A stretch of 64,000 bases of DNA, taken from NCBI GenBank assembly GCA_018780035.1, contig JADMKE010000029.1, positions 65,388 through 129,387 on the forward strand, in the 5' to 3' direction. This document shows positions 158-20,665 of the stretch, piece after piece. This stretch comes from Candidatus Sericytochromatia bacterium. GTDB taxonomy: Bacteria; Cyanobacteriota; Sericytochromatia; UBA7694. The notes beneath the pieces were generated by a model, which saw nothing but the letters and a program-made list of their open reading frames with translations, was not told the origin of the DNA and searched no databases. The stretch's first letter is position 1. Every line of letters begins with the position of its first letter. The translations under genes were made by a program, and so were the position numbers.

Positions 158-256
158 GGGTTAACTCCCAAAAAGGTTATATTACTATTTGACAAAGTTG
201 ACTTGGCTACATTAAAAGAATAGTCTTTCATATCAAAATAAACTGCCGAATTTAGT

Positions 257-1573
257 TTAATTCCACCACGGAATGTCCCTTACTGAGCCAACAGTTAGGT
301 GTCTACACCGTATACGATGGTTTAACCACACATTTGTTTTTTCGTTAATCAAGAGCTTCATCGCTTCCCTGCAAATCTTAATCCCCCCTTTGTAAGGTTT
401 TAGTACGAGAAGATGATTCTCAACAGCAACAGGAGAGTCTCCAAGAACCAGTGTAACAACTGCTCTTTCTTTGTCTCTTGAACTCGATGTTCTTCTCACA
501 GTAAGAAAAGGAGGTAGAAAAACACGTTTGTAAAATTTTATTTTTGAGTCTAAATAATTTACATTTACTTCCCCTCCTGAAGGTAACAAACGACTATGTA
601 TGTAAGGATATTCCTCGCCAATTTCAGGATCGCGGTGTGGAACAACGGTACCTACTGAAACTTGAAATAGATCTCCAATAGTTTGACTTGTCGAATCCAT
701 TAACACGGAGCATAGCCAATTATAGTTTGAATTATTGATTTTTTGAGAACGTTTTGTTAAATGAATTATGAATACATCAACATCTGCATAATCATCGAAT
801 TTCCCAACTACTTCAATTGAGCTGACAGCAGCCATGGATGTTATGTGATTTCTCCATTTTTCATATCTTGATCCGGTACGGAGAACGTCAGGTAGAATTG
901 CAGCAATTTGAGATCCGGATTCAGCTTTTTCAATACATTCCGATAAAAAAATTGCTGCCATAGAAATCTTACCTCTTCCCCATGATGCTTTATGAACTTG
1001 ATGGTAGTAAGGTGGATTCAATACGTATAGAGATCTTCTATTAACTTTGCTCAAATACTCTATTCCGTCATTAATGGTAATATTTGGGAAAAGTTCGTCT
1101 TGATTAATTGTGTCAAAATCACAATACGAATTATGCCTTTGCATTGCTTCTAAAACTAATCGGTATTTGAGTGCTAAAATAAACTGAGGTACTACGTCTA
1201 CGCCATGTAAAATTTTTCCCCATTCATTTAAAGTTTTAGAAAGTGTATTCTGGAGAGGTAAAAAGCTAGATGCAGCAAGGAGAAGACTTCCAGCACCACA
1301 AGAGGGATCAATTATACTCAGATTATTTTTCAAAATATCTGAATAAGGCCTTAGGAGCCGTTGAGAAAGTTCTGTAGAAGTAAAAAATGCCCCCAGTGCT
1401 TGACGCTCTTTTAAGTCTAAGGAATTTCTTAACGATTTAGCAGCATCTCCGTTTAGTGCTGGCTCAATAAGAACTTTATATTTAACATCGATATTTTTAT
1501 TGCTTTTTAGTTTCTGGATTAATTCGCTTAATCCAATTGTGTAGTCAGAAAAATTATTCATCTCACTACCCAA
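257..1573 (-). CDS. Gamma-class N6-adenine DNA methyltransferase (Eco57I/TaqI-like MTase module with a C-terminal target-recognition region; no nuclease domain)
   Basis: Motif X FFTSTEL, motif I IIDPSCGAGSLLLAA, motif IV NPPY in gamma-class order. Post-NPPY region resembles the Eco57I-type MTase domain. AT-rich codon usage. Overlaps the upstream gene by 16 nt. Confidence 0.8.
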   Translation of the reverse strand: MGSEMNNFSDYTIGLSELIQKLKSNKNIDVKYKVLIEPALNGDAAKSLRNSLDLKERQALGAFFTSTELSQRLLRPYSDILKNNLSIIDPSCGAGSLLLAASSFLPLQNTLSKTLNEWGKILHGVDVVPQFILALKYRLVLEAMQRHNSYCDFDTINQDELFPNITINDGIEYLSKVNRRSLYVLNPPYYHQVHKASWGRGKISMAAIFLSECIEKAESGSQIAAILPDVLRTGSRYEKWRNHITSMAAVSSIEVVGKFDDYADVDVFIIHLTKRSQKINNSNYNWLCSVLMDSTSQTIGDLFQVSVGTVVPHRDPEIGEEYPYIHSRLLPSGGEVNVNYLDSKIKFYKRVFLPPFLTVRRTSSSRDKERAVVTLVLGDSPVAVENHLLVLKPYKGGIKICREAMKLLINEKTNVWLNHRIRCRHLTVGSVRDIPWWN

Positions 1574-2550
1574 ATAGCGTTAACAAGTTCTTCTCGTCTA
1601 AAGGATGAAGGTAAATCTATTTCATCAGGAATAAAAATTTTAGGAAATCTCCTACGCCTCTGACCAGTGTTTCTTGCACTTAAAGCATTTAAAATAACGT
1701 CAGGTTTTTGATGGATAATAGATTGAATGATAATTCCATAGGGGGATAGGTTTAGAATTGATTTTCCTCGGCCAGCCTTACTTTCATCAATTAGAATTTT
1801 AGCTAAAATGTCTGAATTTAAATCCAATAATTTTAATAAATCTTGAATATTTTTAGAAAGACGGATAATGTCTTGGGGAAGACTAGATTGCTCCCAATTT
1901 GACTTAACAAGATTAATTATTTTAATTAGTTCTTGTGTCTGTCGATCTGTCTTATTTGACAGCGCTACCTCAGAAATTTCATCAACAGCTGCCACAGCAG
2001 ACTCAGCATGTTCCAACATGGCTTTAACTTGGAATGCGACCCTTTGCCTAGCCCAACTTAAATTGTCATTTTTGTATATCAGATCATGTGTTGAGATTGA
2101 CCATGCATGTTGTAGAAATGTTTTTATCTGACATTCAAACTTTTTTCCTAACAATCCTGACGGAGGTAATGTTTCGTCATCGATCCATTCTACGTATAGC
2201 CTTAAATCGTCAAAGACAAAAGATTCTGGAGATTTATGGGTCAGACTATCCTCCTGAGGTCTTCGATATTTAAGTGTGAATAGGCTACAAATAAGGTCTT
2301 CAGCCTCTTTTATCGAATGGAAATTATTCACAACAATTGTACAGGCAAAGAAATCTTCCAAATCCTTGGGATTATCAAACCTTCCAGTCTCAAGCTTTTG
2401 AGCAAAACTTTCTAATTGTTTTACTCGACTTTCATAATGCCATCTTGGGTTTCTCTTAGAACTAATTAACTTATCAACTAGTTGTTGAAGTTCTTCGTAC
2501 ACTTTGACTTGATCAAGATACAAGTTTCTTACAGAAAGTGGTACCTTCAT
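1558..2550 (-). CDS. RelA/SpoT-family nucleotidyltransferase (small-alarmone-synthetase / toxSAS-like) with a roughly 170-aa uncharacterised C-terminal region
   Basis: SRVKQLESFAQKLETG matches the G-loop GRVKxxxSIxEKMxRRG. DFFACTIVV matches DIAGLRV. ECQIKTFLQHAWSISTHDLIYK matches EIQIRTLAMNFWATIEHSLNYKY of RelQ/RelA synthetase domains. Catalytic D and E are present. Its ATG is embedded in the ATGA overlap with the stop of the DUF262 gene. Confidence 0.6.
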   Translation of the reverse strand: MKVPLSVRNLYLDQVKVYEELQQLVDKLISSKRNPRWHYESRVKQLESFAQKLETGRFDNPKDLEDFFACTIVVNNFHSIKEAEDLICSLFTLKYRRPQEDSLTHKSPESFVFDDLRLYVEWIDDETLPPSGLLGKKFECQIKTFLQHAWSISTHDLIYKNDNLSWARQRVAFQVKAMLEHAESAVAAVDEISEVALSNKTDRQTQELIKIINLVKSNWEQSSLPQDIIRLSKNIQDLLKLLDLNSDILAKILIDESKAGRGKSILNLSPYGIIIQSIIHQKPDVILNALSARNTGQRRRRFPKIFIPDEIDLPSSFRREELVNAIWVVR

Positions 2551-3671
2551 TATTCACTTTCAACTTCTTCTTCAGAATTTTGCTCTTCTGGTAAAATCTG
2601 AGGTGGCTCTAAACCTAACAAAATACTAGATAATAGAGTATGCCGTGCTTTCCTCTGCGCTGGCTCAGTATTTGCACCAGTCACGTTATTTAAGTAAGCA
2701 AGTGGAGCAGCAAAACTTGATTCAGGTTGGGTCCTTAAAAACTGTTCCAAATTATCTTGTTCAATTTTTAGAGTCTGTACTTGCTTCATAAACGCAGCAA
2801 ATCGTTTAGCGGCCTCTTCATGACTAGGCAATTCAGAGTAGTTTAACGCTATTGCAAACCAAAGAGAAAAAAGATTATTTGATGATTTTGCATATTCTGA
2901 AACGCTTTGATTTGCTGTTTCCATTTGATTGATAAATGATTTTATCTGCTCAAAATGAATTATAAATTTTTCCTCATCAAAATCAACATCAGTCTCTGCT
3001 GGTAGTTCATATTTAGCGCACATTTCATCAATGAAATCTTGATCAAAACCGCGAATTTCCTTATTAATCATGAGTATCATAAGTTCTAAAATAAACTGGA
3101 CATCTTTCATTCTCTTGACTTTTGCTGTTGTTACAATTCCATAGTCTTTCCAGAATTGAGATTCTGCTTCTGCTTCAGCTGTATTTATTAACCACCCATC
3201 AAACATAGCGTGGCGCAATTCCTGACGCTCTAGTTTTAAAGAATTTCGGTTTAGTCGATCAAATACAGCGCTAATTAGCGTTCCTTCAACAATTTTAATG
3301 TATTCAACAGGAATTACGTAATCCCAGAATCTTCTTTTTAAATCATCATCTAATTGTGACCATTTTTTTCCGTTCAGTCTGGTATCACCAAACCCCTTAT
3401 CTATGACTATTTTATTTTGAGTGAATAGCAAGATTGTCTCAAGACGTTGTTTTCCATCCACAACCTCGTGAATATGAAGCCCATCTTTGAATACTTTATG
3501 AAGAAAAATAGCTGGACTGGGATAGCCTCGAAAAATCGAATCTAGAAAAAAACGTCGATCTTTTGGGCTCCATACACTTCTCCGTTGATATGGAGGATTT
3601 AAATCGAGTTGTGCATTTCTATTCAGATCAAGGAACCAACTAATATCCTGAGTTGTTACGCGTCTATCCAT
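2550..3671 (-). CDS. DUF262 (GmrS-like, ParB/Srx-fold NTPase) protein with a C-terminal helical region; no DUF1524/HNH domain
   Basis: N-terminal LNPPYQRRSVWSP and DGKQRLETI (QRxxVW and DGQQR hallmarks of DUF262). Strong SD (AGGAG) before the ATG at 3671. AT-rich. First gene of the three-gene operon. Confidence 0.75.
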   Translation of the reverse strand: MDRRVTTQDISWFLDLNRNAQLDLNPPYQRRSVWSPKDRRFFLDSIFRGYPSPAIFLHKVFKDGLHIHEVVDGKQRLETILLFTQNKIVIDKGFGDTRLNGKKWSQLDDDLKRRFWDYVIPVEYIKIVEGTLISAVFDRLNRNSLKLERQELRHAMFDGWLINTAEAEAESQFWKDYGIVTTAKVKRMKDVQFILELMILMINKEIRGFDQDFIDEMCAKYELPAETDVDFDEEKFIIHFEQIKSFINQMETANQSVSEYAKSSNNLFSLWFAIALNYSELPSHEEAAKRFAAFMKQVQTLKIEQDNLEQFLRTQPESSFAAPLAYLNNVTGANTEPAQRKARHTLLSSILLGLEPPQILPEEQNSEEEVESE

Positions 3672-3998
3672 TCGGGCTCCTGTATTTAAATAAAAATTAA
3701 TATTGTATTGTTATGTATGTAATTTAATTATCAACATTATATCAAAGGATAAGTGTATGGGGTTAATAAGTTTTCAAATATAGAAAATTTAAGAAATACT
3801 AATTTTTTCATCTCCCTGTAGGGATTCTCCCTTAAAGAATGTATCACATTTTCGCCTCAAAACCAGCTTTTCTGAATCATAGAACTGAGTTACTTATCCT
3901 TCACGAAACGCAAACCCTGCATGAGGAACAGGCCCAAGAGAAGGGGTTCACTTGGGCCTGACCAGAACGGAGAAAGCAGAATCAGAAGGGGATCACCA

Positions 3999-12337: not shown

Positions 12338-12410
12338 GCGTCCTTAGTTCAGTTGGTAGAACGGCGGTCTCCAAAACCGCATGTCGGGGGTTCGAGTCCC
12401 TCAGGGCGTG
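12338..12410 (+). tRNA. trnW: tRNA-Trp (anticodon CCA)
   Basis: Hand-folded cloverleaf: 7-bp acceptor GCGTCCT/AGGGCGT (two GU pairs), D arm GTTC/GAAC, anticodon stem GCGGT/ACCGC with loop CUCCAAA, T arm GGGGG-TTCGAGT-CCCTC. 73 nt. Canonical position upstream of secE-nusG. Confidence 0.85.
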
Positions 12411-12456
12411 CTTCATTTTCCTTCTGTTTAGACAAAGTATGTTATTATACATGCAT

Positions 12457-13976: not shown

Positions 13977-16484
13977 GTGTTAAAAAGGGGGAACCTGTTC
14001 CCCCCAAAGGAAAACAAATTGGATTTGCTCTCTCTGCTCCCCTCTCTTGCTCCCACTTTGGCCGAATCTCCCTGTGTGATTCTCGAAGCGCCCCCCGGTA
14101 CCGGTAAAAGCACCACTGTTCCGCCCGCTCTTTTAAAAGCGGCTTGGCTGGGCAGACAAAAAATCCTGATGCTTGAACCCCGGCGTCTGGCTGCCAAATC
14201 TGTGGCCCGGTACATTGCCGCGCAGATGGGCGAAAAGGTGGGTGAAACGGTGGGCTACCGCGTGCGCATGGAGACCCGTGTTGGCCCCCAGACGCGCTTG
14301 GAAGTGGTCACCGAAGGGGTCTTGACGCGCATGTTGCAAAGTGATCCGGCCTTGGAGGGCTATGGCCTGGTGATCTTTGATGAATTTCATGAGCGCAGCC
14401 TGCAGGCCGATCTGGGCTTGGCACTGTGCCGTGAAAGCCAAGCAGTGCTGCGCGAAGATTTGCGTCTGTTGATCATGTCGGCCACCCTGCCAGCCCAATT
14501 GGCTGAACTCCTGAGTTCTGATCTTTTGAGCAATGTGCCGGTCTTGCGTGCGGAGGGAGTCATGCACCCGGTGGAATTGCGCTATGCCGCCCCGCCCCAG
14601 GGTGGAGACCCCGTGGCCTTTGCCGCTGGCGTGATTCGCACGGCCCTGCGTGAAGAAAGTGGCAGCCTCTTGGTGTTTTTGCCGGGGGCCGGTGAAATTC
14701 GCCGCTTGGCTGAGCGTTTGGCTGACCTGCCCCCTGAGATATCTGTTACCCCCCTGTATGGGGATTTGCCCCCCCAAGAGCAAGACCGCGCCATTCAACC
14801 CGCCCCACCGGGCCAGCGCAAAGTGGTGCTCGCCACCAATATCGCCGAAACCAGTTTGACGATTGAAGGCATTCGCGGCGTGATCGATCTCGGGCTGGAG
14901 CGCTCGCCGGTCTTTGACCCAATCAGTGGCATGACCCGTTTGACCACCCGGCGCATCTCGCGGGCCTCAGCCACCCAGCGTATGGGCCGGGCGGGTCGCC
15001 TGGAACCGGGCTTTTGCCTGAGGCTTTGGCCAGAATCCGACACGGCGCTTTTGGCTGCAGATATCGAACCCGAAATTTGCTCGGCAGACTTGGCCCCGCT
15101 GGCATTGGAATTGGCCCTCTGGGGCGTGAGTGACCCCCAGAGCTTGGCCTGGCTCGATCCCCCTCCCCAGCAGGCCTGGGCGCCTGCCGTTGAACTCTTG
15201 CAAGACTTGGGCGCGCTCTCAACAGAACAGATCCTGACACCCCACGGCAAAGCCCTGGCCCAATTGCCCCTGCACCCGCGTTTGGGTCATATGCTGCTCA
15301 AAGCCGAAGCCGAGGGCCTGGGCGGACTGGCCTGTACCGTGGCGGCCTTGCTCTCAGAGCGCGATTTGCTCAGTGGCAGCCGCGACGCCGACCTGGCTGG
15401 ACGTTTGACGGCCTTGGCGCGGGGCAAGGTGCCCCCTGGCCGCAAACAGGCTGTCGAACAGGCCGCCCAGCAAATTGCCGAAAAACGCCGACTCAAAACC
15501 GCCACGCGCCCAGCTGAAGCCCTGGGCCTGTTGCTGGGCTGGGCCTATCCCGACCGGATCGCGATGCGCCGGGGCGACTCGCCGCGTTATTTGCTGGCGA
15601 ACGGGCGCGGGGCGATTTTGCCCGAAGGGGATTTTTTGGCCCGCGAGCCCTGGCTGGTGATTGCCCACCTCGATGGCCATCCCCGCGAAGCCAAAATCTT
15701 TCTGGCTGCAGCCCTGGACCCCGAGCAATTGGCCAGCCTGACCGAAGGCCAAACTGAAACCGGGCTGGAGGTCAATTTTAACGCCCAAACCGGATCGGTG
15801 CAGGCCTTTGAGGTGATTCGCTTTGGCGCGCTGGCTTTAAAAAAAGAGCGGATCCACAAACCCGATGCAAATACCCTGGCGCAGGCCCTGCTCGAAGGGG
15901 TCAAGCAGCGGGGCATTGCCAAATTGCCCTGGAACCCCCATTTGTTGCAATGGCGCGAGCGGGTCGCTTTTTTGCACCGGGTTTTGCCCGAACACTGGCC
16001 CGATCTGAGCGATGCTGCCCTGGCCCGCGACCTGGGGGATTGGCTCTTGCCCTTTTTGAGCGGTTTACAGCGCTTGGACGCCATCAGCCCTGATTTATTG
16101 CAACAGGCCCTGGAAAACCACCTCGGTTATGCCCGTCTGGCGGAGTTGCAAGCGGCAGCCCCCACCCATATGCCCGTGCCCAGCGGCTCGCAAATTCGCC
16201 TCGATTACAGCGGCGAAGAACCCGTACTGGCGGCCCGTTTGCAAGAACTCTTTGGCCTCCACGCCACCCCCCGGATTGCAGGCGGGCAGGTGCCGCTGCT
16301 GATTCACCTGCTTTCACCCGCCATGCGCCCGGTACAGGTCACCCGCGATTTGGCCAGCTTTTGGCGCGAGACCTATCCCGAGGTCAAAAAAGAACTCAAA
16401 GGTCGGTATCCCCGCCATTATTGGCCCGAGGACCCGCTGCAGGCCGAGGCTGTCCGCGGGATCAAGCGCAAGCCTCGGCCATAG
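13977..16484 (+). CDS. hrpB: ATP-dependent RNA helicase HrpB (DEAH-box)
   Basis: APPGTGKST Walker A, DEFHERS, SATL, HrpB C-terminal domain. The exact start may be a downstream alternative codon. Confidence 0.85.
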   Translation: MLKRGNLFPPKENKLDLLSLLPSLAPTLAESPCVILEAPPGTGKSTTVPPALLKAAWLGRQKILMLEPRRLAAKSVARYIAAQMGEKVGETVGYRVRMETRVGPQTRLEVVTEGVLTRMLQSDPALEGYGLVIFDEFHERSLQADLGLALCRESQAVLREDLRLLIMSATLPAQLAELLSSDLLSNVPVLRAEGVMHPVELRYAAPPQGGDPVAFAAGVIRTALREESGSLLVFLPGAGEIRRLAERLADLPPEISVTPLYGDLPPQEQDRAIQPAPPGQRKVVLATNIAETSLTIEGIRGVIDLGLERSPVFDPISGMTRLTTRRISRASATQRMGRAGRLEPGFCLRLWPESDTALLAADIEPEICSADLAPLALELALWGVSDPQSLAWLDPPPQQAWAPAVELLQDLGALSTEQILTPHGKALAQLPLHPRLGHMLLKAEAEGLGGLACTVAALLSERDLLSGSRDADLAGRLTALARGKVPPGRKQAVEQAAQQIAEKRRLKTATRPAEALGLLLGWAYPDRIAMRRGDSPRYLLANGRGAILPEGDFLAREPWLVIAHLDGHPREAKIFLAAALDPEQLASLTEGQTETGLEVNFNAQTGSVQAFEVIRFGALALKKERIHKPDANTLAQALLEGVKQRGIAKLPWNPHLLQWRERVAFLHRVLPEHWPDLSDAALARDLGDWLLPFLSGLQRLDAISPDLLQQALENHLGYARLAELQAAAPTHMPVPSGSQIRLDYSGEEPVLAARLQELFGLHATPRIAGGQVPLLIHLLSPAMRPVQVTRDLASFWRETYPEVKKELKGRYPRHYWPEDPLQAEAVRGIKRKPRP

Positions 16485-16514
16485 ATTAACCTGTTAACAA
16501 CGAGAAAACACCCA

Positions 16515-17507
16515 TTAACCATTCGTCAAGATATAATAGTTTTCTCTTTTGCGTTTGTGTTTGGTTTGAATTAATTCATTGTCATAAAACACACCGTAAA
16601 TATAATATTGATTATCACTGATTCTGTCATAGATAGCCATACCTTTGTAATCAGCTATCTGCCTCGTTCTGACATCACTATAATGAAAACGAATAAACCC
16701 AAAATCAACATAGGGTTTCAGTGAATTAAAAGACTCATATAAATTTGCTTTTTTTTGCTTGATTAATATCTCAGATGCATGTATGTGATAATTATTTTTA
16801 TTTTCTTCGTATTGCATCGGATTTGAAGCATTCATCCAATAAGACGGAGTATTGTGAGTCGGATTTTTTGCTTCACGCTCCAGAACACTTAAATTTTCTG
16901 GATATTTCCCTTGATCGAGGGCATAAGTTTCTAACATGATTTGTAAGTTATGCATATTTACTTTGACCATCGATTCTTTATTGCAACTACAGGCAAAAGC
17001 TGACATAAAAAACAAAGGATCAACAATAAAAGTTGTAAACATACAAAAAACAAATAGTATCCGTCTATACTTATTCAAGTAAATCATCAATATCCAGCCA
17101 AATATCAAAAAAAATCCTGTATAGGCAAATAGAGAAATAGTAGAAAAAAATAAGATTATACCCGGTAATGGATGAATTACATCTTCAATAATTCCAGGTA
17201 AAAAACGCATTTTTTTTCGCTTGCTATCTCTTTTCTTGAAATTTAAATCCATTCCATAGAGTAAAATTAGCAATATCATAAGTAAAATAAAATTTTCAAA
17301 ATTATGTTGGTAAATTGGTTTAAAATAATAATCGGGAGGAGCACAATGACAAGGGAGGTGATGAATACTTAGCCAATTGAATCGAAATATTGGAAACACA
17401 ACGCATAATATTGATAGATTAAACAAACCAAATTCATGAATATACTTATTCTTGTATAGTCTATTGATTAGATTCATATGTCTAAATGAGATACTGACCT
17501 CAAACAA
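16515..17507 (-). CDS. AT-rich polytopic membrane protein with a C-terminal GspG/pseudopilin-like segment
   Basis: Multiple TM helices in the first roughly 190 aa. KVNMHNLQIMLETYALDQGKYPENLSVL resembles the conserved LxxLExALxMYxLDNGxYPT region of type II secretion GspG / type IV pilins. Strongly AT-rich codon usage. Confidence 0.4.
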   Translation of the reverse strand: MFEVSISFRHMNLINRLYKNKYIHEFGLFNLSILCVVFPIFRFNWLSIHHLPCHCAPPDYYFKPIYQHNFENFILLMILLILLYGMDLNFKKRDSKRKKMRFLPGIIEDVIHPLPGIILFFSTISLFAYTGFFLIFGWILMIYLNKYRRILFVFCMFTTFIVDPLFFMSAFACSCNKESMVKVNMHNLQIMLETYALDQGKYPENLSVLEREAKNPTHNTPSYWMNASNPMQYEENKNNYHIHASEILIKQKKANLYESFNSLKPYVDFGFIRFHYSDVRTRQIADYKGMAIYDRISDNQYYIYGVFYDNELIQTKHKRKRENYYILTNG

Positions 17508-17594
17508 AGATTTTCAATTATTCCCAATATAAGAAGTGTTCTAACATATCTTGAAAAGGCCTCAACCCATCATCACCCATCGGGATTTCAAGCA

Positions 17595-17711
17595 ATGCAA
17601 AACATCGCTGCCTGGCTGGTAACAAAGTTGATGCGTTTGCAACTCTCTCAATCTTGGCCCTTGTCTGCAATCAGCCAGCGAAGGATAATGAAGCGTATCC
17701 GTCTCATGATC
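17595..17711 (+). pseudogene. Decayed duplicate of the 5' end of the downstream phosphotransferase gene (19787)
   Basis: MQNIAAWLVTKLMRLQLSQSW aligns with MQTIDTALVKRLIRSQFPQW. The DNA just upstream (cctcaacccatcatc...) is also shared with 19752-19800. Short frame ends at 17711. Confidence 0.4.
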
Positions 17712-17730
17712 TACCCATAAGGAGCCTGAT

Positions 17731-18261
17731 ATGCAAAACACAGAAATCCAAGATATCCAGCGTATTTTTTCCACCCGCTTGGCTACCCTTGAGCAGATTT
17801 TGAGCCTGGGTGAAAAACACGTTGCAGGAGAGGGGGAGATGGCGATGGATGCGGTACTGCAAGCACGTTTGGCCCCAGATATGTTTCCTTTGGGCACACA
17901 AATTGCCTTTGCCTGCAACCAACCCCGTGGATTTGCACTCTGGTGTGCGGGTCAGCCTTATGAGAATCTTGACCCCGAGGTGAAGACGCTGGCTGTCGCT
18001 CGTTCATACATTCAAAATACCCTGTCAGAGCTGGCTGCCATAGAAGCTCTTGATACAAAATTGGACGAAATCAAACGCACAGGGTTGGGGCCAGGACTGT
18101 ATTGTGAGACGCCTGGGCGGCTGTATGTGAGCGATTATCTGATGCCCAATTTTTACTTCCACATCACCACCAGCTATGCGATTTTAAGAAATCTGGGGGT
18201 GCCCCTTGGCAAAGCGGATTATATGGGCTTTCTGATGCCGCATGTCAGACAAGAGAGCTGA
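17731..18261 (+). CDS. DUF1993 family protein
   Basis: YVSDYLMPNFYFHITTSYAILRNLG is typical of DUF1993. AAGGAG SD upstream. Confidence 0.65.
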   Translation: MQNTEIQDIQRIFSTRLATLEQILSLGEKHVAGEGEMAMDAVLQARLAPDMFPLGTQIAFACNQPRGFALWCAGQPYENLDPEVKTLAVARSYIQNTLSELAAIEALDTKLDEIKRTGLGPGLYCETPGRLYVSDYLMPNFYFHITTSYAILRNLGVPLGKADYMGFLMPHVRQES

Positions 18262-18350
18262 GACTTCTGGGTGGAAATTATCAAAGTTGTTCAATAACCC
18301 GTTGGAATCTCTTTCAGATTAGAATGATATATTAAAATAATGGTTAATTT

Positions 18351-19688
18351 ATGATTAAAAAATACAATATTTTGTTGTTGTTTTGTATTTTTGAGATTTT
18401 TTCTCAATCTTCTTGTATTTCTTTGGGTGTTATTAATTATGAATTGGAATCTATTTCACTAGATCGGGGGTTGGAACATCTTAAAAAGAAAGAATATAAC
18501 CAAGCCATACAAGCTTTTCAAGTCAAACTACAAATTAACCCCAAAGATATTGATACTTATATTTGGTTGGCCACCGCTTATGATGATCAAGGCGATAAAG
18601 ATGCTGCTCTCCAAACACTGAAAAAAGTATTGGAATTAGAACCAAACCATATCAGTGCCAATATGCGTTTGGGATACGTGTATTATAAAAAAGCAGATTA
18701 CAAAAATGCCTTAGTAGCGTTCAAAAAAACTGCAGAATTAGATCCGAAAAATACTGAAAATCTAAAATTTTTAGGCAGTACTAGTTTTTATTTGGACGAT
18801 AATGTATCTGCGAAAGAATATTTTTTAAAATATGAATCACTTGAAGAAAATCCTTCTGCAAATACTTTAGGAACTATATGTGCCAATTACTTTAATTTAA
18901 AAGAGTTTGAACAAGCTAAAATATACGCAGAAAAATCAATAAAAACTGACCCATCTGTTTCTTTGGCTTATTTTATTTTAGGTGGCTATTTTTATCAGAA
19001 AAGAGATAATGAAAATGCAGAAAAAAATTTCAAATTAGCTGAAATAAATAGTAAAGGAGAAAGCGTAAATGCTATTTATTACTTGGGGAAATTATATTTT
19101 GAAAAAAAACGCTTTCAATCAGCTTTTGATTATTTCTCAAAACTACCTTCAAGTTATCGAGACACAGAGAAATTAAAACAGGAATCTGAAAAAAAACTAG
19201 AAGAACTAGCTTCAAAAAACTATTTAAAAACATATTTTGAAAATGTTTTTAGTGCTTATGATCTAAATGTTTCTGAGCCACAATCCAGCATGAGCTGTTT
19301 GTCAGATACCTCTGGATTGATTGAAAAACAGGAGTTAAAATCTGTTATTACTAACTATATCAAGTCACAAGGGACTCTTGATTTAAAAAAAATCATATTT
19401 GTTGAAGAGTTAAACGAATACAAGGGGCATAAATATCAACCTTACCATTATATTTTGAGAGCAAAAGTCTTAGAGTCAAAAAATTTTAATGAAACAGAAA
19501 TGGCCTTGCTCGATGCCGTTCAAAAGGCTGTTTTAGTTGGCATTATAAATGGTGTGCCTTGTAAATTTAATAATCACTATGATAAAGCCTCTTCCCAAAA
19601 CAGAAGTTACGATGATTATTTTTTTATTAACTTTATCCCAACAAATCTTCTTTTAAAATATGATTTGTCTATAAAAAAACAAAATTAG
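18351..19688 (+). CDS. AT-rich TPR-repeat protein with N-terminal signal/lipoprotein-like sequence
   Basis: LLLFCIFEIFSQSSC. Multiple TPR units (AIQAFQVKLQINPKD, AALQTLKKVLELEPNH, ALVAFKKTAELDPKN). Very AT-rich. Confidence 0.7.
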   Translation: MIKKYNILLLFCIFEIFSQSSCISLGVINYELESISLDRGLEHLKKKEYNQAIQAFQVKLQINPKDIDTYIWLATAYDDQGDKDAALQTLKKVLELEPNHISANMRLGYVYYKKADYKNALVAFKKTAELDPKNTENLKFLGSTSFYLDDNVSAKEYFLKYESLEENPSANTLGTICANYFNLKEFEQAKIYAEKSIKTDPSVSLAYFILGGYFYQKRDNENAEKNFKLAEINSKGESVNAIYYLGKLYFEKKRFQSAFDYFSKLPSSYRDTEKLKQESEKKLEELASKNYLKTYFENVFSAYDLNVSEPQSSMSCLSDTSGLIEKQELKSVITNYIKSQGTLDLKKIIFVEELNEYKGHKYQPYHYILRAKVLESKNFNETEMALLDAVQKAVLVGIINGVPCKFNNHYDKASSQNRSYDDYFFINFIPTNLLLKYDLSIKKQN

Positions 19689-19786
19689 TATCAAAAATAT
19701 TTTTTAAGCAATTTAAGGTTGTGAACAGCTAAGCAAAGGAACTTGTAAGTACCTCAACCCATCATCGTCCACAAGGATATCAAGCC

Positions 19787-20665
19787 GTGCAAACCATCGA
19801 TACCGCCCTTGTTAAGCGCCTGATTCGCTCCCAATTCCCCCAATGGGCTGAGCTGCCTATCAGACCTGTCTTGCCTGGCGGCTGGGACAACCGCACCTTT
19901 CAATTGGGAGAGACCATGTCCGTGCGCCTGCCCAGTGCAGAAAGGTATGAGCCTCAGGTCGCCAAGGAACAGCGCTGGTTGCCCTGGCTGGCCCCGCAAT
20001 TGCCTCTGCCGATTCCCGTTCCTCTGGCCAAGGGAGAGCCCGATGCTGGGTATCCCTGGCCCTGGTCTGTATACGGCTGGCTGGCAGGGGAGCCCGCAAC
20101 CCACGCAGGGATCACAGATATGAATTTCTTTGCCTCTGACCTCGCAGATTTTCTCAGGGCTTTGCAGCGGCTCGAAACCTGCGAGGCCCCGCCGCCGGGG
20201 GAGCATAACTTTTTTCGCGGGGGTCCGCTCCGCATCTACGATGCAGAAGCCCGGCAAGCCATCAGCCGCTTGGGTGACGCCATAGACGCACAGGCAGCCC
20301 TTGCAATCTGGCAAACAGCCCTCCATTCTACTTGGCGCACAGCGCCTGTCTGGATTCATGGCGATGTCAGTGCAGCCAATCTGCTGCTTGAAAAGGGCCG
20401 TTTATCTGCAGTGATCGACTTTGGCTCATGCGGAGCGGGTGATCCCGCCTGTGACCTGACGATTGCCTGGACGCTCCTGCAGGGCGACAGCCGAGAATTG
20501 TTCTGCAAAAACCTGGCTCTGGATCCCGACACCTGGGCCCGCGCACGGGGCTGGGCCCTCTGGAAAGCCCTGATTACCTTGGCAGATCACCGTCACCCAA
20601 CGACACTACACACCCTCCCGGCCTGGCATGTCTTGAAAGAGGTACTTCAAAATGCAGGGTTTTAA
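19787..20665 (+). CDS. Aminoglycoside/phosphotransferase (APH) family kinase, GTG start
   Basis: Brenner HGD motif in IHGDVSAANLL and IDFGSCGAGDPACDL. Confidence 0.75.
   Translation: MQTIDTALVKRLIRSQFPQWAELPIRPVLPGGWDNRTFQLGETMSVRLPSAERYEPQVAKEQRWLPWLAPQLPLPIPVPLAKGEPDAGYPWPWSVYGWLAGEPATHAGITDMNFFASDLADFLRALQRLETCEAPPPGEHNFFRGGPLRIYDAEARQAISRLGDAIDAQAALAIWQTALHSTWRTAPVWIHGDVSAANLLLEKGRLSAVIDFGSCGAGDPACDLTIAWTLLQGDSRELFCKNLALDPDTWARARGWALWKALITLADHRHPTTLHTLPAWHVLKEVLQNAGF

Follow-up and report, generated by a model that had tools for sequence, protein, structure and literature searches.

A window of 64,000 nucleotides from contig JADMKE010000029.1 (positions 65,388 to 129,387; assembly GCA_018780035.1) of a metagenome-assembled Candidatus Sericytochromatia genome carries close to its left end a low-GC island with three minus-strand genes. 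These code for a DUF262 protein (g1), a divergent enzyme of the RelA/SpoT type (g2) and an N6-adenine DNA methyltransferase (g3), coordinates of which are compiled in Table 1. The pair formed by g1 and g2, designated DUF262-Rel in the following, was found to recur in bacteria and archaea, and its relation to the methylase is the main subject of this analysis.

Three coupled genes in a low-GC island

The three open reading frames (ORFs) proposed by the first-pass annotation were verified by ORF calling, and the GC profile of the window confirmed the AT-rich nature of the segment (GC 0.33–0.37 at approximately 200–3900 versus 0.50–0.60 to the right; the left flank is represented by 157 bp only). 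The genes are translationally coupled and form an operon-like unit, as had been suggested. While the overlaps are indeed tight, the one at position 2550, formed by the stop codon of g1 and the start codon of g2 with 1 nt in common, reads TAATG and not ATGA; the latter sequence is found at the junction between g2 and g3, given a g3 start at ATG 1561. This codon is most likely the start of g3 and also that of the publicly annotated 434-aa form (MBT9547789), and the previously noted 16-nt overlap with g2 applies to the alternative TTG 1573 only. A Shine-Dalgarno sequence (AGGAG, 3681–3677) precedes the ATG of g1 at a distance of 5 nt (CCCGA), again as predicted. The promoter-like hexamers assigned to the operon leader (TTGATA-16-AACAAT, 3734–3707) do not exceed chance expectation, with 11 found versus 12.9 ± 3.9 expected from shuffled sequence, and a scan for terminators was likewise not above chance. 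An insertion of approximately 3.7 kb agrees with the composition boundaries of the island, but the edges are devoid of flanking direct repeats, integrase and adjacent tRNA genes according to a mobile-element scan. A 22-nt inverted repeat (91 % complementary) has one arm in the early coding region of g1 (3570–3591, approximately codons 27–34) and the other in the 5' leader, approximately 70–90 nt before the g1 start (3739–3760); its occurrence might reflect an RNA structure of the leader or mere chance.

The product of g1, deposited as 'DUF262 domain-containing protein' (MBT9547791), matches GmrSD_N (DUF262) with E = 2e-20 at residues 23–156, above the curated threshold, and carries the motifs QRRSVW and VVDGKQRLETI. 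Its earlier assignment as a DUF262 protein without DUF1524 can be refined to an NsnA-like one, since the best match among the PADLOC defence models is NsnA (E = 4.3e-34; residues 13–301 versus profile positions 56–347 of 385), next to PD-T4-2_A (E = 8.8e-21) and the REase_II model PDLC03418 (E = 3.5e-9). Neither DUF1524 nor HEPN nor an endonuclease domain was detected in g1, g2 or g3 with Pfam, PADLOC and NCBIfam models, and no nuclease motif was detected in g1 with Pfam and PADLOC. Residues Q29 R30 S32 W34 and V70 V71 D72 G73 K74 Q75 R76 are invariant over 56 homologues, which is consistent with a working pocket for binding of nucleoside triphosphates (NTPs). NsnA-type ParB-DUF262/ParBDB proteins have been put forward as phage-DNA sensors (PMC12065111), and DUF262/ParB domains are described to bind NTPs and to switch state upon nucleotide binding (PMC10952713).

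The RelA/SpoT identity of g2, labelled 'hypothetical protein' by NCBI and not represented by an NCBIfam model, is upheld by sequence and structure. The Pfam model RelA_SpoT is matched with E = 2e-9 (38.2 bits, cut-off 27), and the motif SRVKQLES...ECQIKTFLQHAWSISTHDLIYK is present in the translation. In a high-confidence AlphaFold2 model (mean confidence score pLDDT 91.7), the first approximately 195 residues superpose on small alarmone synthetases (SAS) and toxSAS enzymes, in accordance with Foldseek, while generic Pol-beta nucleotidyltransferases score <=8 in the same comparison; g2 accordingly displays the synthetase-domain fold of the RelA/SpoT homologue superfamily. Across 117 homologues, R42, K44 and K52 of the ATP-binding motif R42-x-K44-x3-S48-x3-K52 are invariant (S48 in at least 90 %), as are the catalytic D66 and, within E139-x-Q141-x-K143-T144, residues E139, Q141 and T144 (K143 in at least 90 %). 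The sequence similarity to toxSAS enzymes is marginal with phmmer (E about 5e-3), and a profile of the g2 family retrieved nothing from the PDB sequences at E <= 0.01, such that only single-sequence and structure-based comparisons succeeded. No structural relative of the C-terminal domain was found by structure comparison. This domain has an isoelectric point (pI) of 9.9 (family median 8.0, range 4.6–10.2); for the N-terminal domain a non-basic value of 5.7 was obtained (family median 7.0). The g2 family is coherent in length (approximately 320–330 aa) and comprises more than 1,700 matches in a database clustered at 90 % identity and 167 clusters at 50 % identity (E <= 1e-30, exhaustive search).

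The third gene, publicly named 'N-6 DNA methylase', was confirmed as a gamma-class N6-adenine methyltransferase without endonuclease domain. It matches the Pfam model N6_Mtase (E = 1e-5, above cut-off), PADLOC MTase_II (E = 2.3e-11) and, below cut-off, NCBIfam met_A_Alw26 (E = 9e-8). The motifs FFTS, DPSCGAGSLL and NPPY were all found in the translation; none of 19 orthologues deviates from motif I (C88 G89) or motif IV NPP(Y/F) (N182 P183 P184), and the C-terminal domain shows good conservation as well. Judged from these motifs, g3 appears to be an active DNA methyltransferase. A cognate restriction endonuclease is absent from the window (ORF list, Pfam).

Table 1 Features of the low-GC island (window positions)
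Feature	Position	Strand	Description
g1	2550..3671	-	NsnA-like ParB-DUF262 protein, 373 aa; proposed DNA-state sensor
g2	1558..2550	-	Divergent RelA/SpoT enzyme (small alarmone synthetase fold), 330 aa; proposed effector; catalytic domain ~residues 1-195, helical C-terminal domain ~196-330 without known relative
g3	257..1561	-	Eco57I-family gamma-class N6-adenine DNA methyltransferase, 434 aa from ATG 1561 (438 aa from alternative TTG 1573); conserved C-terminal target-recognition-like domain, no endonuclease domain
5' leader	3672..3920	-	AT-rich, presumed to hold the operon promoter; right island boundary
3' spacer	158..256	-	AT-rich, 3' of g3; left island boundary, GC-rich minus-strand host gene begins at 157

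A conserved gene pair and its methylase partners

Conservation was assessed with one genome per species; 113 species possess a g2 relative, and 80 loci were retrieved and compared. These represent more than 15 phyla of bacteria and archaea, among them Acidobacteriota, Bacteroidota, Planctomycetota, Chloroflexota, Nitrospirota, Thermodesulfobacteriota, Pseudomonadota, Myxococcota, Gemmatimonadota, Verrucomicrobiota, Actinomycetota, Bacillota, Cloacimonadota and Armatimonadota as well as the archaeal Thermoplasmata and Nitrosopumilales. A g1-like gene (41–54 % identity) is located directly upstream of the Rel-like gene in 79 of the 80 loci, co-oriented and usually overlapping, the remaining locus being cut off at a contig end. 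Due to this adjacency and the correlation of pairwise distances between g1 and g2 (r = 0.85), the DUF262-Rel pair is a fixed cassette, with the methylase as a variable partner. Cultured hosts include Pedobacter steynii DSM 19110, Myroides indicus DSM 28213, Microvirga spp., Mesorhizobium kowhaii, Terriglobus sp. and Geomonas nitrogeniifigens. Three IMG/VR contigs show the same layout, as does a conjugative Rhizobium plasmid, where it lies between transposase genes. An origin from phages was rejected, as 50,697 phage genomes yielded no match and 2.9 million viral contigs yielded 3.

Irregular forms of the pair also occur. The DUF262 gene is disrupted beside an intact Rel gene in L030, L056 and L081, which constitutes weak evidence as these are mostly metagenome-assembled genomes (MAGs); in L081 (4506–6183, an IMG/VR contig) an insertion of approximately 1.7 kb splits the DUF262 gene. 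In a high-GC Rhizobium MAG (L071, 2922–7004) the DUF262 ORF reaches approximately 1,000 codons further upstream; the extension may be an artefact of ORF calling or a real N-terminal fusion like that of type II Menshen NsnA. A long ORF in L045 was rejected as domain fusion, as it is a low-complexity read-through artefact.

An Eco57I-family methylase is adjacent to the pair in about 70 of the 80 loci, in several forms: a solitary g3-type methylase directly upstream (19 loci), a methylase with a separate BsuBI/PstI endonuclease (PF06616 and PF17728; approximately 25 loci), a methylase-PstI fusion (6 loci), an Eco57I-like type IIG enzyme together with M.Eco57I (10 loci, all Bacteroidota) and other solitary members of the family (approximately 10 loci). 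Overall, approximately 41 loci contain either a BsuBI/PstI restriction endonuclease or an Eco57I-type IIG enzyme, and approximately 30 loci including that of the window are without recognisable nuclease. Loci without adjacent methylase are mostly limited by contig ends. Many of the arrangements are same-strand operons of 3–4 genes in the order methylase, endonuclease where present, DUF262 and Rel, with gaps that do not exceed about 30 nt; others are convergent, and the methylase may be located upstream, downstream on the same strand, or in convergent orientation. In a neighbour-joining tree the concatenated pair tracks the methylase type, and the window falls within the main g3-type clade. Its gene order DUF262-Rel-methylase is a rare permutation, as all 19 g3-type genome loci are arranged as methylase-DUF262-Rel. 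Two loci (L040, 3646–5265; L077, 3633–5267) code beside the pair for proteins of approximately 540 aa, composed of the N-terminal helix-turn-helix of BsuBI/PstI endonucleases and an unidentified C-terminal region; these may be variant restriction or reader subunits. In L013 (7998–10975) the pair is flanked by a convergent gene for a phospholipase D (PLD)-like protein of 310 aa (HxK motif) and by the gene for a 704-aa Cys-rich protein.

The reverse association, determined for the 80 best g3-type methylase loci from metagenomes, is weak, with DUF262-Rel present in 4 of them. In 67 of the 80 the methylase is followed by a GHKL protein of approximately 690 aa (HATPase_c_3 and HATPase_c), and in 42 of those 67 then by a response-regulator (RR)-like protein of approximately 233 aa without Pfam match and a metallo-beta-lactamase (MBL)-fold hydrolase (examples among L084–L163: L121, 6671–8743; L086, 5226–5927; L154, 9358–10362). 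The methylase-GHKL-RR-like-MBL arrangement seems to constitute a candidate system of its own, which is widespread, methylase-linked and related to the paraMORC and two-component-like modules of PMC8011034. In the methylase tree DUF262-Rel and GHKL partners are interleaved, and the methylase of the window is nearest to GHKL-associated ones. That the same g3-type methylase partners either set of genes, without separation in the tree, suggests a shared modification module with interchangeable arms of NTPase sensor and effector. REBASE-derived REase_II models of PADLOC match both the GHKL protein and g1, which implies that such neighbours are already provisionally treated as restriction subunits. 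The co-occurrence expected from the first-pass annotation thus holds for the pair, which is found in unrelated phyla, but not for the trio; a fixed three-gene system was rejected, because the methylase differs in type and position between loci and most g3-family members are associated with other partners, predominantly of the GHKL type.

The genomic context was analysed on the basis of 114 genes that directly border the complete cassette in the genome loci. Approximately 14–16 of these have strong matches to defence models (raw count), comprising SIR2-pAgo (twice), a type IV enzyme, HEC-06, AbiD, reverse transcriptases, Cas1, mad3 and several PDC candidates, 5 are integrases, and the remainder are housekeeping genes. 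The defence matches are suggestive of a defence context; the anticipated location in a defence island does not apply to the window. Right-hand neighbours of the island are genes for an LTXXQ/CpxP-like protein, a 2OG-Fe(II) oxygenase and a putative peptidase, and a terminator-like hairpin (3932–3916) was assigned to the flanking LTXXQ gene. The sole tRNA gene of the window, for tRNA-Trp (CCA; 12338–12411), coincides with a local GC dip (43 %) and is unassociated with the island, at a distance of 8 kb. A second low-GC island (16500–20000, 35–38 % GC versus approximately 52 % in the flanks) harbours genes for a 330-aa protein with weak T2SSG-like match, a DUF1993 protein and a tetratricopeptide repeat protein, none of which is matched by PADLOC; the gene for a HrpB-type DEAH helicase (13977–16484) is located immediately upstream.

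Relation to known systems

No PADLOC v2 system model, NCBIfam model or openly searchable full-text paper describes a combination of DUF262 with RelA/SpoT, in agreement with the earlier impression of novelty; within openly searchable full text, to which the search was confined with subscription-only literature and newer databases outside its scope, no paper joins DUF262 with RelA/SpoT, alarmone or toxSAS. DUF262-Rel can be described as a DUF262-centred sensor-effector system with an effector of the toxSAS type, distinguished by near-obligate coupling to one methylase family. Identity with the named systems Menshen, PD-T4-2, GmrSD, Dazbog and MADS was rejected, as the partner genes fail in each case.

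Menshen is composed of NsnA, the ABC ATPase NsnB and the inPIN-nuclease NsnC, and sometimes lies next to methylases (PMC12065111). Resemblance is confined to g1, which conforms to NsnA in domain composition (ParB-DUF262 and C-terminal region), position as first gene of the operon and proposed role as DNA sensor. In contrast, the operon of the window lacks an ABC/OLD-type ATPase corresponding to NsnB, and none separates DUF262 from Rel in the 79 loci, the RelA_SpoT gene occurring instead; inPIN and nuclease domains of NsnC are absent from g2 and g3 (Pfam, PADLOC). Moreover, 27.9 % of Menshen systems have any neighbour resembling restriction-modification (R-M) genes (PMC12065111), compared with the near-universal methylase linkage of the pair. 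PD-T4-2, consisting of DUF262 and HEPN (PMC10952713), shares the combination of DUF262 with a single effector and the PD-T4-2_A match of g1, yet no operon gene matches PD-T4-2_B or HEPN (Pfam, PADLOC). GmrSD, BrxU and SspE likewise couple a DUF262 sensor/NTPase to one effector; they contain DUF262 together with a DUF1524 His-Me nuclease, whereas GmrSD_N alone was found here and DUF1524 in none of the three proteins. Compared with PD-T4-2 and with GmrSD, BrxU and SspE, the effector g2 is neither a HEPN nor a His-Me/HNH nuclease, but a polypeptide of its own with the fold of a nucleotide pyrophosphokinase. The MADS system is matched weakly by g3 (mad2; PADLOC E = 1.1e-7; NCBIfam 12.3 bits versus a cut-off of 720), and other mad genes are absent from the operon.

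With CapRel(SJ46), FaRel/FaRel2 and Tas1, g2 has only the catalytic fold in common. The invariant F113 of g2 aligns at Y155 of CapRel, a position at which Tyr has been reported essential for toxSAS activity (bioRxiv 10.64898/2026.04.06.716658). Next to this exchange of Tyr for an invariant Phe, g2 differs from these enzymes in the replaced Arg of DxxGxR and the replaced GYRSxH motif, in its C-terminal domain and in its partner, a large DUF262 protein in place of a fused pseudo-ZFD or small antitoxin. The logic proposed below is most closely paralleled by PANGU type I, where the DNA-bound YejK-like nucleoid protein Pag1A activates the GRel toxSAS Pag1B via the C-terminal domain of the latter (bioRxiv 10.64898/2026.04.06.716658). 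Both are bicistronic and combine a proposed DNA-bound sensor with a SAS-fold effector bearing a C-terminal domain. However, the PANGU sensor is a YejK nucleoid-associated protein and not ParB-DUF262 (g1 matches only GmrSD_N/NsnA models), the acidic DNA-mimic C-terminal domain is absent from g2, and PANGU type I is not described as methylase-coupled.

R-M-associated modules of GHKL (paraMORC-like) and response-regulator-like proteins have been described with emphasis on C5-cytosine methylases (Bellieny-Rabelo et al. 2021, PMC8011034). They resemble the present case in the logic of methylase, NTPase and effector, and the g3-type methylase stands directly upstream of such genes in the aforementioned metagenome loci, but the HATPase_c_3/HATPase_c, RR-like and MBL hydrolase partners are unlike DUF262-Rel. 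Type II R-M systems share with the operon an active-looking methyltransferase and differ by their cognate endonuclease. PrrC/EcoprrI is an anticodon nuclease that acts as translation-directed suicide effector, is embedded in a type I R-M operon and is guarded by that R-M system; effector chemistry and R-M type are different, and a DUF262 sensor is missing.

Proposed function and alternatives

The locus is read here, with evenly balanced confidence, as a sensor-effector cassette that works with an Eco57I-family N6-adenine methylase and constitutes an R-M-linked antiviral module of the abortive-infection type. This reading is favoured because of the near-obligate pairing, the NsnA-like sensor, the methylase linkage, the viral and plasmid copies, the PANGU precedent and the defence genes in some flanks. 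Host DNA would be methylated by g3, as its intact catalytic motifs imply. As an NsnA-like ParB-DUF262 NTPase/DNA binder, g1 would monitor the state of the DNA, and invading unmodified DNA could be sensed by g1 directly or via the recognition domain of the methylase. Strict adjacency, translational coupling and co-divergence suggest that g1 controls g2, probably via the family-specific helical C-terminal domain of g2. Once activated, the presumed pyrophosphokinase g2 would move pyrophosphate from ATP to a nucleotide or to the 3' end of a tRNA, leading to growth shutdown; fold and conserved catalytic residues point to this chemistry. A rather tentative proposal is R-M-like immunity with a non-nuclease 'restriction' arm, in which ParB-DUF262 possibly detects unmodified or foreign DNA and the RelA/SpoT enzyme in response makes a toxic alarmone-type nucleotide or pyrophosphorylates a nucleic-acid 3' end. 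Loci with PstI- or Eco57I-type endonucleases would in that case gain a built-in second layer of abortive infection.

Several observations weigh against the favoured reading. The acceptor site of g2 is unlike that of all characterised enzymes, with DxxGxR deprived of its Arg and GYRSxH replaced by an invariant F113-D114-D115-x-R117. The enzyme looks active, but because of this divergence its substrate is not predictable from sequence; the invariant F-D-D-x-R leaves room for a substrate new to RelA/SpoT enzymes. The sole defence-model match of g2 is to the candidate PDC-S33 and weak (PADLOC, E = 2e-7), PDC-S33 not being described in the text of preprint 10.1101/2024.01.29.577857, and PADLOC has no system model for the DUF262-Rel arrangement. 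Most immediate flanks of the cassettes are not defence genes, and the flanks in the window are housekeeping genes rather than a defence island. A degraded methylase lies beside an intact pair in L006 and L060, and L013 is a true exception without methylase, a PLD-like gene taking its place; these three loci (MAGs, errors possible) are unexpected if unmethylated self DNA were lethal. Finally, DUF262 is highly conserved (41–54 % identity to g1) while methylase types, and presumably also target sequences, differ, due to which direct sequence-specific reading of methylation by DUF262 is unlikely.

The constancy of the partner family, irrespective of presumed specificity and with or without endonuclease, fits a conserved protein surface better than varied DNA motifs and would be accounted for if the pair guarded the modification or restriction machinery. 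In such a case DUF262-Rel would be silent while bound to the Eco57I-family methylase or R-M complex and fire when a phage anti-restriction factor inhibits or displaces the methylase, methylation itself not being read. Tight operons of 3–4 genes and the precedent of PrrC in a type I R-M operon speak for a guard, but a pure protein guard could dispense with the full NsnA DNA-sensor architecture of g1, and L006, L060 and L013 would be constitutively triggered; we regard this explanation as unlikely. An independent abortive-infection or Type-IV-like module, which would sense a phage cue alone and owe its methylase linkage to co-mobilisation in defence or mobile islands, is considered improbable. 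The rarity of the pair at g3-type methylase loci (4 of 80), the variable position of the methylase and the methylase-free L013 would agree with independence, as would Menshen, for which frequent proximity to R-M genes likewise comes without proof of a link (PMC12065111). That the same methylase family borders the pair in about 70 of 80 loci, across bacteria and archaea and more than 15 phyla, is, however, difficult to reconcile with it, as are the very short intergenic gaps, the correspondence between pair clades and methylase type, and a linkage much tighter than the loose one of Menshen (27.9 %; PMC12065111).

Two further explanations concern the role of g2. If g2 were a constitutively toxic toxSAS and g1 its antitoxin, the pair could act as toxin-antitoxin addiction module stabilising the methylase or R-M island. 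The order of upstream neutraliser and downstream toxin with translational coupling is typical of toxin-antitoxin systems, to which toxSAS enzymes classically belong as toxins (bioRxiv 10.64898/2026.04.06.716658), and some copies are located on plasmids or beside transposases and integrases. Such addiction is nevertheless very improbable: L030, L056 and L081 keep Rel with a disrupted DUF262 gene, which should be lethal with an obligate antitoxin (weak evidence, mostly from MAGs), an NTPase of 355–373 aa with DNA-sensor architecture is unlike known toxSAS antitoxins, and the partner of a toxSAS can be an activator, as in PANGU (bioRxiv 10.64898/2026.04.06.716658). Least probable in our estimation is a role of g2 as signal generator or regulator, either producing a second messenger read by the NTP pocket of DUF262 or by R-M enzymes, with the DNA-directed activity residing in DUF262 or the linked endonuclease, or connecting epigenetics with physiology outside defence. 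NTP binding and state switching of DUF262/ParB domains (PMC10952713) and a bona fide endonuclease in approximately 40 loci would suit a signal, and the non-basic N-terminal domain of g2 (pI 5.7; family median 7.0) lends no support to tRNA binding. The approximately 30 loci without recognisable nuclease, including the window, and the lack of a detectable nuclease motif in g1 argue against it.

The presence of DUF262-Rel in cultured hosts makes the sensor-effector cassette directly testable. If validated, it would represent a widespread, as yet unnamed antiviral module of at least 113 species-level genomes from more than 15 phyla of bacteria and archaea, and the first link of epigenetic self-marking to nucleotide chemistry of the RelA/SpoT type. 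One methylase family would then serve as common modification module for swappable arms, either DUF262-Rel or GHKL-RR-MBL, and the known small alarmone synthetases would come to include a family in which the acceptor site is remodelled and a new regulatory domain is present.

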